This document shows, in pieces, positions 2,078 to 38,004 of a stretch of DNA of 64,000 nt. The position numbers and the translations under genes are program-made. The stretch lies in the sequence record NC_014260.1. One strand, given 5' to 3'. The notes below the pieces were generated by a model. The model searched no databases. It saw only the letters and a list, made by a program, of their open reading frames with translations, and was not told the origin of the DNA. Source of the stretch: Escherichia phage IME08. Numbering within the stretch: the stretch's first letter is position 1; the number at the start of each line of letters is the position of its first letter.

Positions 2078-3756
2078 TCCATCACCGTGAATCGTCCAAC
2101 TTTCTTCATTTGAAGATGTTGGCCATAAGCTTGTGGGTCATGGTCTCGGTGAGAGATAATAAACACGTTCGTATCCTCAAGGCTATTCAAGATGGTTGCA
2201 ATGGTCTTAACGCCTTCAGCGTCAGTAGCACTGTCAAATACCTCATCAAGAATTAACGTGCTGATATTAACACCAGATACCTTTGAAGCAATATCACGCC
2301 ATGTAAAAAGTAGTGCGATATCAATACGTGCTTTCTCACCCTGTGAAAATGAAGCATAACTAAAGTCTTCACGTCCACGTGATTTAATCGTCTCATTGAA
2401 CTCTTCATCTAGTGTAAAGACGTAGTCGGCTTCCATAATCTTCAAATAAGAATTTATCTGCTTATTAAAGATAGGAATGTATTTCTTAATAATGGAGCCT
2501 TTAATACCCGTGTCCTTCAACATTTCTGTCAGAATTCCACGATGATATTTTTCCATTACCAAGGACGATTTGGTAGAGACGATTTTATCAAGCTCTGCTT
2601 GAAGCGCGGCAATCTCTTCGGCATTACTTACGAACTCAGCAGCTGCTTGGTCGATTAATACTTTAACTTTTTTAGCTTTCTCTACAGCAGTAATGGCTTG
2701 TTGCTTATGAGTAGCTATCTGAGATTTAATAGCCAGCGCTTTATTACGTTGTTCGGTTACTTGGTCCTTAATGAGCTTGAGTTCTTGGTACTGCTCATTA
2801 ATCTTATCCAAAGATTTTTGAAGTTCAAAGTTCTTATCCTTAATTTTAGTAAGGATATTTCCATGCTCTTCCAATCCTTGCATACATGTAGGACAACTAC
2901 CACCGGTTTCGTATAATTTCACAACCTTAGTAAAGGTTGCCATATCATTCTTGATTGCAAATCCTTTATTGCTCAGGTCACTCATAGAGTTGCTAGGGTC
3001 ATCATCGACGATGACATTGAGTAATTCATCAGTCAGTTTTTCTATATTGCCCTTCGCAGTCCTGGCTTCTTTAACCAGCTCATCGTACATTAACTGTAGA
3101 CGTGCTGCGTTCTCGCCGGATAATTTACGCTGACGTTCTTCGTTGTCATTATAAATTTTAATTTGCTGGGTAATAGAATCCTGTTTAACGTCGATTACCT
3201 GGATTTGGCTATTAGTCTCACGAATCAAAGATTTGTTCAACTTGTCCATATCCGCTAATACAGAAACCTCTAACAGGTCTTCCACAAGCTTTCGGCGCGC
3301 AGGGGTCGACAAACCCATGAAAGGGGTATACCCTGCTGTACCAAGTACGACAATCTGTTTGAAACTGGCATATGACATTCCGATAAGCTGTTCAAATTCT
3401 GCTTGGAAGTCTTTACTGCTGGCAGATTCATCAAGACGTTCACCGCCACAAGTGATTTCAAAAATATTGGGTTTTTGCCCGCGCTTGATATAGTATTCTT
3501 TGCCATCATATTCCATCCACAGTTCGACCAAAAGGTCTTTCTTATTACTTGAGTTAATCAACTGCCCTTTCTTAACATCACGAAAAGGCTTACCAAACAG
3601 AGCAAATGTAACGGCTTCAAGGAACGTAGATTTACCAGCGCCATTTTTACCGGTGACTAAGGTCTTTTGGACCTTGTCAAGTTGGATTGTAATAGGTTGC
3701 TGGCCTACCGACATAATATTTTTATACGTTACTTTCTTTAACTTAAACGTTTTCAT
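2074..3756 (-). CDS. 46: Recombination endonuclease subunit gp46 (Rad50/SbcC-like ATPase)
   Basis: 560 aa, same length as T4 gp46; N-terminus MKTFKLKKVTYKNIMSVGQQPITIQLDKVQKTLVTGKNGAGKST (Walker A), C-terminal LILDEVFD signature region. Confidence 0.92.
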   Translation of the reverse strand: MKTFKLKKVTYKNIMSVGQQPITIQLDKVQKTLVTGKNGAGKSTFLEAVTFALFGKPFRDVKKGQLINSSNKKDLLVELWMEYDGKEYYIKRGQKPNIFEITCGGERLDESASSKDFQAEFEQLIGMSYASFKQIVVLGTAGYTPFMGLSTPARRKLVEDLLEVSVLADMDKLNKSLIRETNSQIQVIDVKQDSITQQIKIYNDNEERQRKLSGENAARLQLMYDELVKEARTAKGNIEKLTDELLNVIVDDDPSNSMSDLSNKGFAIKNDMATFTKVVKLYETGGSCPTCMQGLEEHGNILTKIKDKNFELQKSLDKINEQYQELKLIKDQVTEQRNKALAIKSQIATHKQQAITAVEKAKKVKVLIDQAAAEFVSNAEEIAALQAELDKIVSTKSSLVMEKYHRGILTEMLKDTGIKGSIIKKYIPIFNKQINSYLKIMEADYVFTLDEEFNETIKSRGREDFSYASFSQGEKARIDIALLFTWRDIASKVSGVNISTLILDEVFDSATDAEGVKTIATILNSLEDTNVFIISHRDHDPQAYGQHLQMKKVGRFTVME

Positions 3757-36548: not shown

Positions 36549-37166
36549 TTATTTACGGGTCTTTTCGAACTGGGCCGCGTCACCAGCCAGACGACGAGCT
36601 TGACGAAGTTTGTTGTCGATTTCTTCGCGCATAGGCTGGGTATACTTAAGGCCTTCAACCGTCAGATAGAGGCGATAAAGGTCTGGGGTGTCTAGGTTGT
36701 TAATGTGCTGTCCGTTACGAAGAGTATTGAATTCACGAACAAGGTGTTTAGTTTCGGATTCGATTTCAGAAACCAAAGAAGCCAGTTGATTATATTTTTT
36801 AACTATAGTGCTGGTGTCAAACTTGATTTTAGGTTTAGGAGCTTCTTTTACCGGTTCGGCTTTAGGCGTCGGTTTCGGCGCTGCAACTTTGGCCTGGGCT
36901 GCAGGTTTAGCAACAGGAGCTTTAGCTGGTTTAGCAGGCTTAGTAGCGCCGCCAGCTACGATATCTTTAAAAGCTTTAGAAGCTTTGTAATATTCTTTCT
37001 GGTTACTAGTATCAAAACCATACATATCATAAACGTTTTTAAAGAATTCGGTGGTGGTTTTAGTCCCAGAAATTTTATCATAAGCCGCTTGCCACATATC
37101 TTTAGTCATGCGGACGCCGGCTTCGGTCAGAACGCTTTCGTTCAAAAATTCATTGTAAGTTTTCAT
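36549..37166 (-). CDS. Internal head protein (IPIII-like, basic Lys/Ala/Pro-rich) with capsid targeting sequence
   Basis: 205 aa; N-terminal [11 protein letters not shown]; Ala/Lys/Pro-rich basic middle region; its own late promoter upstream. Confidence 0.6.
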   Translation of the reverse strand: MKTYNEFLNESVLTEAGVRMTKDMWQAAYDKISGTKTTTEFFKNVYDMYGFDTSNQKEYYKASKAFKDIVAGGATKPAKPAKAPVAKPAAQAKVAAPKPTPKAEPVKEAPKPKIKFDTSTIVKKYNQLASLVSEIESETKHLVREFNTLRNGQHINNLDTPDLYRLYLTVEGLKYTQPMREEIDNKLRQARRLAGDAAQFEKTRK

Positions 37167-37194
37167 TATTGTTTCCTGTGTTAATTAACTTATC

Positions 37195-37202
37195 TATTTA
37201 TA
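37195..37202 (-). promoter_or_regulatory. Late promoter (TATAAATA) for the internal protein gene
   Basis: Minus-strand TATAAATA about 29 nt upstream of the ATG, SD ACAGGAAAC in between. Confidence 0.55.
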
Positions 37203-37203
37203 C

Positions 37204-37233
37204 AAAAAAGGCCCAACCTTTCGGAAGGGCCTT
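37204..37233 (-). terminator. Rho-independent terminator downstream of the tRNA cluster
   Basis: Minus-strand GGCCC...GAAA...GGGCC hairpin followed by UUUUUU. Confidence 0.6.
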
Positions 37234-37401
37234 TAACCTAGGGTAACCTTGTCGGGGTTCCACCTGCTAGGCAAGTGTTCGGTGCGCCGTTTCGGCTGTG
37301 AGATAAGGGACTTTAAGAGGAACTCATGTACGCCTTAAAGTCGGGTCTTATTCAGGGAACTTCAGTCCGACGACTTACCGGTAGCGACCCGGTTTCTTGT
37401 T

Positions 37402-37477
37402 TGGCCGAGACAGTAGGGATCGAACCTACGACCCAGGACTTAGAAGGTCCTTGCTCTTCCTTCTGAGCTATGCCTCG
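37402..37477 (-). tRNA. tRNA-Arg (anticodon UCU)
   Basis: 76 nt cloverleaf folded by hand: acceptor CGAGGCA/TGTCTCG, D-stem GCTC/GAGC, anticodon stem AGGAC/GTCCT with loop CTTCTAA, T-arm GTAGG-TTCGATC-CCTAC, encoded CCA. Confidence 0.8.
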
Positions 37478-37481
37478 TATT

Positions 37482-37556
37482 TGGCGGACATGCATGGATT
37501 CGAACCATGGACCAATTGATTAACAGTCAACTGCTCTACCACTGAGCTACACATCC
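37482..37556 (-). tRNA. tRNA-Asn (anticodon GUU)
   Basis: 75 nt: acceptor GGATGTG/CATGTCC (two G-U pairs), D-arm GCTC-AGTGGTA-GAGC, anticodon loop CTGTTAA, T-arm CATGG-TTCGAAT-CCATG, encoded CCA. Confidence 0.75.
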
Positions 37557-37560
37557 AAAT

Positions 37561-37634
37561 TGGTGGCCCTGGGTGGAATCGAACCACCATCCAGCGATTA
37601 TGAGTCGCTCGCTTGACCGTCCAGCTACAGGGCC
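37561..37634 (-). tRNA. tRNA with CAU anticodon (Ile2/lysidine-type or Met)
   Basis: 74 nt: acceptor GGCCCTG/CAGGGCC, anticodon arm AGCGA-CTCATAA-TCGCT, T-arm GGTGG-TTCGATT-CCACC, encoded CCA; anticodon arm resembles bacterial tRNA-Ile2. Confidence 0.7.
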
Positions 37635-37719
37635 TTAATTCTATTATGAAAGGCTCTTTGAGGGAAGAACCTTTGGTAATAGAGGGTATTAATGATAGAG
37701 TAATAATATCACATAATTC

Positions 37720-38004
37720 TTAAAGCATATTAATGTAATCAAGTTTAATAGAAGCAATCTTCAAAGGATTTTTAAAGATGTCGTATTCGACCAATCCATT
37801 TTCAGTTGCGGTATAAAAAGTAAAGTTAACAGAATTATAACGATGGCTGTTAACTTTGAGCTTAACATCGCTTGAACTACGTCCTATATTAACCTGTTGA
37901 ACATCAAGAACAGCATCTTTGCCATAATTGCGAATCAACAACTCAGCTGCAACCTGATCGGATTTATAGCCATTCTCTGGATTAGTAACCTTAACGTATA
38001 GCAT
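37720..38004 (-). CDS. Hypothetical protein (94 aa)
   Basis: ORF upstream of the tRNA cluster. Confidence 0.45.
   Translation of the reverse strand: MLYVKVTNPENGYKSDQVAAELLIRNYGKDAVLDVQQVNIGRSSSDVKLKVNSHRYNSVNFTFYTATENGLVEYDIFKNPLKIASIKLDYINML

Follow-up and report, generated by a model that had tools for sequence, protein, structure and literature searches.

Phage T4 rnaD has been known for about 50 years, and since the 1970s no function has been assigned to either of the two stable RNAs of this phage. T4 from which the whole tRNA region has been deleted is viable. The T4 RefSeq entry (NC_000866) places rnaD at positions 71053-71171 (119 nt) and annotates it as "small, stable RNA; species 2 RNA". 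Transcription of the T4 tRNA cluster starts from a middle promoter located just upstream, and the primary transcript is a 1.75-kb precursor comprising all tRNAs and both stable RNAs, with its 3' end after species I (PMC2330249). RNAC and RNAD were classed as late RNAs by RNA-seq (PMC9697503), the Northern probes listed in the methods of that study being those for RNAC and ssrA only, and the roles of both RNAs are given as unknown in the literature (PMC3014915, PMC9697503). Phage RB55, which belongs to the T4 species, contains eight tRNAs (Gln, Leu, Gly, Pro, Ser, Thr, CAU and Arg) followed by rnaD and then rnaC; the sequence-only reading of the DNA studied here had thus given the T4 complement correctly as eight tRNAs and no tRNA-Asn. 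The second stable RNA of the T4 tRNA operon, rnaC (species 1 RNA, 140 nt), resembles rnaD in that it is embedded between tRNAs in other genera, e.g. in phage Moon. The sequences of the two RNAs, however, are unrelated. The 3' two-thirds of rnaC resemble a tRNA in that they contain a T-arm (GGGUUCGAAUCCC) and match the tRNA-Sec model weakly (E 0.68), features which rnaD does not have.

The window, i.e. the whole stretch of 64,000 nt from Escherichia phage IME08 that was analysed, carries a full-length orthologue of T4 rnaD at positions 37400-37280. It is part of a tRNA/rnaD unit all features of which are on the minus strand:

37703-37727, minus strand: candidate MotA-type middle promoter of the tRNA operon (homology to the upstream region of T4/RB55 and RB69)
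37649-37674, minus strand: leader hairpin AAAGGUUCUU-CCCUCA-AAGAGCCUUU, conserved, between promoter and first tRNA
37561-37634, minus strand: tRNA-CAU (ARAGORN and Rfam tRNA model)
37482-37556, minus strand: tRNA-Asn (GUU) (ARAGORN and Rfam tRNA model)
37402-37477, minus strand: tRNA-Arg (UCU) with encoded CCA (ARAGORN and Rfam tRNA model)
37280-37400, minus strand: rnaD (species 2 RNA) orthologue, 121 nt (blastn, covariance model, covariation)
37234-37279, minus strand: conserved 3' trailer, 46 nt (84-100% identity across T-even-type loci)
37204-37233, minus strand: intrinsic terminator of the tRNA/rnaD operon, hairpin plus U6 (fold and compensating stem differences)
37195-37202, minus strand: T4-type late promoter motif TATAAATA for the next gene, ORF 37166-36549

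Escherichia phages dhaeg and dhabil are 99.7% identical to this region of the window and JS98 is 96% identical, all three being members of the genus Dhakavirus (Tevenvirinae).

Both ARAGORN and the Rfam tRNA model return exactly the three tRNAs that had been folded by hand before (Arg-UCU, Asn-GUU and CAU), with scores of 62-73 bits in the Rfam model and an encoded CCA in all of them. The description of the cluster as minimal is a relative one: RB69, VR25, ecom005 and IME341, all relatives, have just the tRNAs for CAU and Arg. The CAU tRNA is probably tRNA-Ile2, which reads AUA after lysidine modification, rather than tRNA-Met. It contains the pairs C4-G69 and C5-G68, and its anticodon stem-loop is identical to what we take to be the sequence of E. 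coli ileX. In phage FriedrichZschokke (BASEL), the CAU tRNA that occupies the corresponding site of the cluster is annotated as tRNA-Ile/ATA, a likeness that is positional and by annotation. Codon usage in the long ORFs of the window amounts to 7.7 (AGA) and 11.0 (AUA) per 1000 codons, several-fold above the usage in E. coli.

The assignment of rnaD is based on position, sequence and a family model. The RNA lies on the tRNA strand, 1 nt past the CCA of tRNA-Arg(UCU) and upstream of the operon terminator, as it does in T4: the rnaD start and the tRNA-Arg CCA end are at 37400 and 37402 in the window and at 71171 and 71173 in T4. In blastn, positions 37400-37280 align end to end with RB3 rnaD ("species II RNA", RB3 870-990), the ends being highly conserved and the middle diverged, and a full-length alignment was likewise obtained with the rnaD annotated in T4. 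Identity to the RNAs of RB3 and RB69 is 77-80% over 121 nt; in comparison with T4, identity is 96% over the 5' 51 nt and 89% over the 3' 27 nt. The family covariance model gives a score of 124.9 bits (E 2.6e-30) and has this sole match in the window. In addition, an e.8 homologue is located downstream of the locus in the near-identical phage dhaeg, and rnaD, the trailer, tRNA-CAU and tRNA-Arg occur in every T-even-type cluster examined. The locus has no annotation in dhaeg and JS98, while a "hypothetical protein" CDS has been placed over it in many other records. We put the probability that identity, fold and biogenesis are jointly as proposed here at about 0.8.

Before this analysis, the 168 nt at 37234-37401 had been regarded as one unassigned stretch, devoid of ORFs and of any cloverleaf that could be folded, that might encode a structured RNA analogous to the T4 stable RNAs. 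An rnaD orthologue is indeed present, but rnaC is absent from the window, and the RNA proper is confined to 37280-37400, the last 46 nt forming the separate conserved trailer. That there is no further cloverleaf in 37234-37401 agrees with negative results from ARAGORN and RF00005, and a permissive Rfam covariance-model search of 37100-37750 (E<=10) yielded no match inside this interval. These results bear on the idea that rnaD is a decayed tRNA gene or a tRNA mimic acting as decoy for tRNA-targeting nucleases. Such an origin might be suspected from its location among tRNAs, from the ...ACCA end of T4 and RB3 rnaD, and from the tRNA-like T-arm and acceptor stem of the sister RNA rnaC. Yet neither ARAGORN nor the tRNA model recognizes rnaD even at E<=10, and its conserved fold is a rod plus a hairpin without a cloverleaf, so that we consider this explanation largely refuted and very improbable. 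A tRNA-like ACCA 3' end was also rejected as a family trait because the tails found elsewhere are ACCG, ACAG, ACCU, AAAC, AACA and AAUC. A self-cleaving ribozyme at the tRNA junction was dismissed as well; there was no Rfam ribozyme match and no plausible P1 for an HDV-like fold.

The statement that the stretch has no ORF holds in substance, as only ORFs of 21-47 aa touch it which are not conserved and overlap tRNA genes or the terminator. A small protein-coding gene is nevertheless what several GenBank records imply by a CDS drawn across rnaD or rnaC (e.g. JB75_0133, Marfa_147, and Merlin). This possibility is largely excluded, and we give it next to no weight: there is no conserved ORF, the lengths of homologues (116, 117, 119, 121 and 123 nt) differ by numbers not divisible by three, the substitutions compensate each other within helices and show no codon-like pattern, and the short ORFs of the window run into tRNA genes or the terminator.

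Comparison of 33 T-even-type and eight distant sequences revealed a common fold which consists of a 5' hairpin (P1) followed by a bulged rod (P2-P3-P4). In the window it is composed of the following elements (position 1 of rnaD corresponds to 37400):

37400-37394, minus strand: 5' leader ACAAGAA (family consensus NNNAGAA)
37393-37377, minus strand: P1 hairpin, 8-12 paired with 20-24, loop GUCGCUA, followed by an AA linker
37374-37368 with 37289-37284, minus strand: P2, pair G27-C117, N28 bulged, 29-33 paired with 112-116
Between P2 and P3, minus strand: purine-rich internal loop GACUGA/GAAA
37361-37358 with 37297-37294, minus strand: P3, 40-43 paired with 104-107
37357-37355 and 37298, minus strand: CCC/C loop (3x1)
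37354-37299, minus strand: P4 arm, made up of P4a, P4b and the distal hairpin
rnaD positions 47-49 with 100-102: P4a, with a one-base bulge at 99
rnaD positions 50-54 with 94-98: P4b, followed by the distal hairpin
37283-37280, minus strand: 3' tail ACCG

Taken alone, the sequence 37280-37400 does not fold significantly (z = -1.5), and the case for structure therefore rests on the comparison with homologues. GenBank records, IMG/VR and metagenomes provided 33 distinct rnaD sequences of the T-even type; in their MAFFT alignment 96.3% of the cells are paired, as opposed to 31-51% when partners are slid, and five pairs show changes on both sides. RNAalifold applied to the RB3/T4-type subset predicted P1, P2, P3 and P4 independently, with six compensatory pairs. 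Among 17 diverse members, changes on both sides were found in 14 of the 22 pairs, 95.8% of the cells are paired (77% in shuffles), and the covariation score is 0.423 (0.128 in shuffles), with none of 500 shuffles matching the observed values on any measure; a 37-sequence alignment had the same outcome, both alignments being fitted to the covariance model, which favours structure. The invariant U-G pairs are possible on the rnaD strand only. The window RNA forms every pair of the model except A40-C107; this mismatch lies in P3, and in the closest relatives an A-U pair takes its place.

Three other pairings were considered and rejected. An extension of P2 by G27-C119 and U28-A118, as given by RNAfold and RNAalifold, was replaced by G27-C117 with N28 bulged because N28 can be U, A or C and distant members have an A at position 119. 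The minimum-energy fold of the window RNA itself contains an alternative CUG/CAG pairing together with a GCCG-AAA-CGGC hairpin, which is unsupported in view of the pairwise covariation between positions 40 and 107. Finally, a long-range pairing between rnaD and the trailer would use a part of the trailer that is not conserved and is deleted in some phages.

The RNA has two parts of very different conservation. The core is 95.7% identical between the window and RB69 (mean pairwise identity 95.5%), whereas the adjacent tRNA-Arg of the window is only about 75% identical to that of RB69-like phages (Mosigvirus). The distal hairpin exists in three unrelated types which are 23-41% identical to each other:

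Type A: window, JS98, VR25
Type B: RB3, T4, RB69, and also Dhakavirus VR5 and ecom005
Type C: T2, IME341

These types cross genus boundaries and have therefore presumably been exchanged by recombination. The window RNA shares with T4 rnaD its size class (119-121 nt), its location on the tRNA strand with a start 1 nt past tRNA-Arg(UCU), and the same P1, P2, P3 and P4, but the distal half of its P4 is of an unrelated type, only about 33% identical to that of T4. Further differences are the tail (ACCG instead of ACCA), the single A-C mismatch in P3, and the trailer, which follows directly without an intervening rnaC.

A search for rnaC in the whole window returned only chance matches of 11-23 nt. 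The junction of rnaD and trailer corresponds to a clean indel of about 146 nt relative to rnaC-bearing loci, and rnaC is also missing at the matching place in JS98, IME281, VR5, ecom005 and IME341. Two loci contain an insert of about 520 nt with an ORF in its place. Wherever rnaC is present it is 97-100% conserved. The phage of the window thus represents a natural case of rnaD without rnaC; rnaD accompanies tRNA-CAU and tRNA-Arg in all T-even-type clusters that were examined, whereas several Dhakavirus genomes lack rnaC.

The sequences flanking the unit are conserved too. The region 5' of the first tRNA of the window is homologous to T4 sequence upstream of tRNA-Gln. It contains a MotA box (UGCUUUA, 37727-37721), a spacer of 12 nt and a -10 box (UAUUAU, 37708-37703), and judged from its homology to the corresponding sequence of T4/RB55 and RB69, the segment 37703-37727 is likely to be a MotA-type middle promoter that drives the tRNA operon. 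The leader hairpin downstream of it is also found 5' of the first tRNA in T4/RB55, RB3 and RB69. At the other end, the terminator proposed previously is borne out by a hairpin (AAGGCCCUUCC-GAAA-GGUUGGGCC) plus U6 in the fold and by stem positions which, among related phages, differ in a compensating manner when the window type is compared with the RB3 type; a simple terminator scanner misses 37233-37204 because the stem has an internal UU/UU mismatch. Taking promoter and terminator together, a precursor of about 0.5 kb is to be expected. The late promoter motif lies outside the RNA unit, marks its boundary, and is located after the terminator in most related loci.

The trailer follows rnaC where rnaC exists, as in T4, and rnaD otherwise. 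Accordingly, positions 37279-37200 of the window are 85% identical in blastn to RB3 1137-1217, a segment that comes directly after rnaC and includes the terminator. The trailer begins with a hairpin (CACUUGC-CUA-GCAGGUG, 37277-37261) for which one compensatory change (G-C to A-U) and one G-U change occur among T-even-type loci. A near-invariant 16-mer (GGAACCCCGACAAGGU, 37261-37246) comes next and then a small variable hairpin, which is deleted in three loci. The trailer may function as a signal for processing, or it may be a small RNA of the 3'-derived kind.

A precedent for a regulatory RNA from such a location is the 3' external transcribed spacer of E. coli glyW-cysT-leuZ, which according to Lalaouna et al. 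in 2015 reportedly acts as a small-RNA sponge by pairing with RyhB and RybB. If rnaD is functional, it would share with this spacer its release as a side product of tRNA operon processing; the spacer, however, is short and base-pairing, whereas rnaD is a long, conserved and structured rod with no target complementarity in the window. A role of this type, in which the C-rich loops of rnaD or the terminator-bearing trailer base-pair with small RNAs of the host or G-rich ribosome-binding sites, would fit with excision from the tRNA transcript, with an invariant UCCC-containing segment (GUUCCCUG), with further C-rich loops in many distal hairpins, and with a trailer made of the near-invariant 16-mer, a terminator hairpin and a U-tail. 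We nonetheless consider it improbable because the CCC sits in a 3-nt loop that is clamped between covarying helices, and because sites complementary to the conserved segments tested are not in excess in the 64-kb window and none is near a start codon. For the trailer 16-mer in particular, no complementary sites beyond chance were found elsewhere in the window. Moreover, a search of 5,426 genomes of E. coli (E<=10) detected no similar sequence, and mimicry of a host RNA is hence not supported either.

RNAs of the rnaD type are not confined to T-even phages. A search with rnaC led to Moonvirus and Kanagawavirus genomes, and a covariance model (R1) combined with further searches extended the family. 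Its more distant members are each located within a tRNA array and on the tRNA strand:

Citrobacter phage Moon (Moonvirus): 31.7 bits, directly after tRNA-His
Enterobacter phage CIP9 (Kanagawavirus): 30.3 bits, directly after tRNA-His
Edwardsiella phage PEi20 (Kanagawavirus): 19.3 bits, 1 nt before tRNA-Asp
CF1-like contig (L193): 36.5 bits, within a 10-tRNA array
Metagenomic contigs L192 and L196: 68.2 bits, between tRNA-Lys and tRNA-Ile
Escherichia phage phiWec188 (Stephanstirmvirinae): 75.2 bits, just before tRNA-Thr
Cronobacter phage CR9 (Vequintavirinae): 59.4 bits, between tRNA-Lys and tRNA-Asn
Klebsiella phage Marfa (Marfavirus): 34.7 bits, after tRNA-Asn

A regex-anchored comparison, which is independent of the model, revealed the common scaffold AAG-N-CGUCS-[6 nt]-WGYU-CCC-UG-[hairpin of 30-59 nt]-CA-C-ARCW-[4 nt]-SGGCG-C-A. 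Within this scaffold the last pair of P2 alternates between G-C and C-G, and the sequences of the P1 hairpin are entirely different. In a phage collection, blastn found about 735 records with the T-even type, 37 with the Moon type, 83 with the CR9 type and seven full-length copies of the phiWec188 type. Most of the approximately 735 carrying records leave rnaD unannotated or mis-annotated as "hypothetical protein". Rfam 15 contains no rnaD-like family, nor was a match to T4 rnaD found in it. With the protein of the adjacent gene trna.2 as query, only close relatives were retrieved, and blastn with tRNA-Arg provided no useful lead to other genera. Matches to the pattern only, in bacterial genomes and seven viral contigs, were set aside as chance since they have no significant covariance-model support; those in four other viral contigs were judged likewise, since these lack both a match at E<=0.01 and tRNAs in the vicinity.

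Based on these features we propose the following route to a mature RNA. Transcription from the MotA-type promoter at about 37727-37703 would produce one precursor of about 0.5 kb comprising tRNA-CAU, tRNA-Asn, tRNA-Arg, rnaD and the trailer. Host tRNA-processing nucleases, i.e. RNase P, which acts at the 5' ends of tRNAs, together with RNase E and 3' exonucleases, would free the tRNAs and thereby excise rnaD, whose ends may be shielded by P1 and P2 such that a stable RNA of about 120 nt accumulates as in T4. This RNA might then act in trans by binding a protein, with the invariant P2-loop-P3-CCC core as recognition surface, and the phage may do without it in laboratory hosts, while on certain natural hosts it may matter for fitness. 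That rnaD is a trans-acting, protein-binding stable RNA is a tentative proposal which we make with low confidence. We favour it because the loops rather than the helices are conserved, the position in the array varies, and the RNA accumulates stably in T4; in other phages, the RNA resides in the middle of arrays with tRNAs within 1-6 nt on its flanks, which likewise points to action in trans rather than to protection of an end. In its architecture rnaD is reminiscent of 4.5S/SRP RNA, 6S RNA and Y RNAs, where an irregular helix displays conserved sequence in internal loops and bulges and not in the helices. This likeness is architectural only, there being no sequence or model similarity and no Rfam match at E<=10.

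The same positional data may be read differently, namely as indicating a cis-acting processing or stability element, e.g. an RNase E entry site or a barrier to exonucleases, that aids maturation or protection of the neighbouring tRNAs and leaves the stable 120-nt RNA as a by-product. The invariable location within tRNA operons at a distance of 1-6 nt from tRNA ends, the placement between the last tRNA and the terminator in T-even phages, and the tolerance of T4 to loss of the region would all be compatible with this. For such a task, however, a simple hairpin would suffice, while in fact the internal loops and the 3x1 CCC/C loop are conserved across subfamilies and more strongly than the adjacent tRNA-Arg. 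In addition, the position within the array is variable (after Arg, His, Lys, Asn or an ORF), and in T2 and RB69 rnaD follows a protein gene and not a tRNA. We therefore regard an exclusive role in cis as unlikely and, being less probable than a protein-binding role in trans, as the next choice after it.

A hint of a host-dependent effect of rnaD on fitness comes from phage BW-1. PMC12685909 describes three lines of BW-1 which, after evolution on the semi-permissive host ECOR34, have exactly one fixed change in common (164264 T>C), and the sequenced lines described there are ECOR34-evolved only. This change maps to position 76 of rnaD (A>G in the RNA), a location on which the authors do not remark. 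It restores the pair C66-G76 of the type-C distal hairpin, which is present in every other type-C sequence. Instead of being adaptive, the change in these lines could reflect a laboratory stock that differs from the reference sequence. Extending the favoured trans-acting role to the entire family, it is tempting to speculate that rnaD-like RNAs form a widespread class which is exchanged horizontally, is carried in tRNA arrays by large enterobacterial phages that are virulent and represent three or more lineages (Tevenvirinae genera; Vequintavirinae; Stephanstirmvirinae plus Marfavirus), and whose members serve as host-specific fitness or counter-defence factors by means of an invariant protein-binding core and a swappable distal hairpin; we consider the odds to be clearly against this wider scheme in its entirety.

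Our analysis adds an unannotated orthologue to a known RNA of T4; what is new is the fold, the modular architecture and the distribution across phage families. The covariation-backed structure separates a near-invariant core from a replaceable hairpin and thus guides the choice of bases to mutate. With A76 and G76 variants of BW-1 on ECOR34, a concrete phage/host pair is at hand for testing an rnaD phenotype. The occurrence of the family beyond T4-like phages, always in tRNA arrays, argues for a general role that is tied to phage tRNA biology.

Position 107 of rnaD (T4 species 2 RNA; window 37294) is C, and U occupies it in dhaeg, JS98 and other A40-type sequences. With C here, helix P3 contains an A-C mismatch and an alternative hairpin, GCCG-AAA-CGGC, is favoured; either natural variation or a sequencing error may account for the C. 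The Dhakavirus ecom005 and two further loci (L138 and L142) carry, between tRNA-Arg and rnaD, a 66-nt 'mini-rnaD', in which a distinct P1-like hairpin is followed by AAG-CCGUCG...GGACUGAU...CCGGCGCAACA and P3 and P4 are missing. This element resembles a tandem copy that has decayed. The second T4 stable RNA, rnaC (species 1), is present in 744 phage records, Kanagawavirus and Moonvirus among them. Its 3' two-thirds are tRNA-like, with a T-arm (CCGGGUUCGAAUCCCGG) and an 8-bp acceptor-like stem, and the match to the tRNA-Sec model is weak (E 0.68).

Features in related loci and in the window
L139 (ecom005) 3344-3409: 66-nt 'mini-rnaD', between tRNA-Arg and rnaD
L143 2322-2460: rnaC, T4-type
L188 (phage Moon) 1501-1642: rnaC, between tRNA-Met and tRNA-Gly
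L020 (Bp7) 1501-1537: terminator-hairpin copy, 3' of uvsY.-2
L011 1704-1734: terminator-hairpin copy
Window 36549-37166 (-): 205-aa ORF, directly past the operon terminator
Window 37195-37202: late-promoter motif TATAAATA, the ORF's own

In many GenBank records 'hypothetical protein' CDSs span rnaD and rnaC (JB75_0133/0133A, Marfa_147 and entries under H35, H46, H51 and others); these are probably spurious gene calls.

The hairpin that terminates the operon (37204-37233) has near-identical copies elsewhere in related genomes, two of which are listed; it seems to be a terminator module that is used repeatedly. A plus-strand terminator called by the terminator scanner at 37377-37393 (+) consists of the complement of P1 and a T-rich run; it stems from the rnaD hairpin as a by-product and does not point to antisense transcription.

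The product of the 205-aa ORF has a middle part rich in Lys, Pro and Ala, and its first 17 residues resemble MKTYQEFIAE, the sequence that targets T4 internal head proteins to the capsid. Two related loci (L004 and L154) have a 127-aa ORF that shares this N-terminus (pairwise E 4e-5) and lies between rnaD and the trailer, i.e. in the place of rnaC in T4. Between trna.2 and the CAU tRNA, JS98 (L141 2783-3665) and IME281 (L140) contain about 880 additional bases, which end in an ORF; in the window this interval holds only the likely promoter and a leader hairpin.

In T2L, RB1 and RB3, the gene for tRNA-Asn is the preferred cleavage site of SegB, a homing endonuclease of T4 (PMC2330249). Because IME08 possesses a tRNA-Asn gene (37482-37556) and no segB, this gene may be a SegB target during mixed infections.
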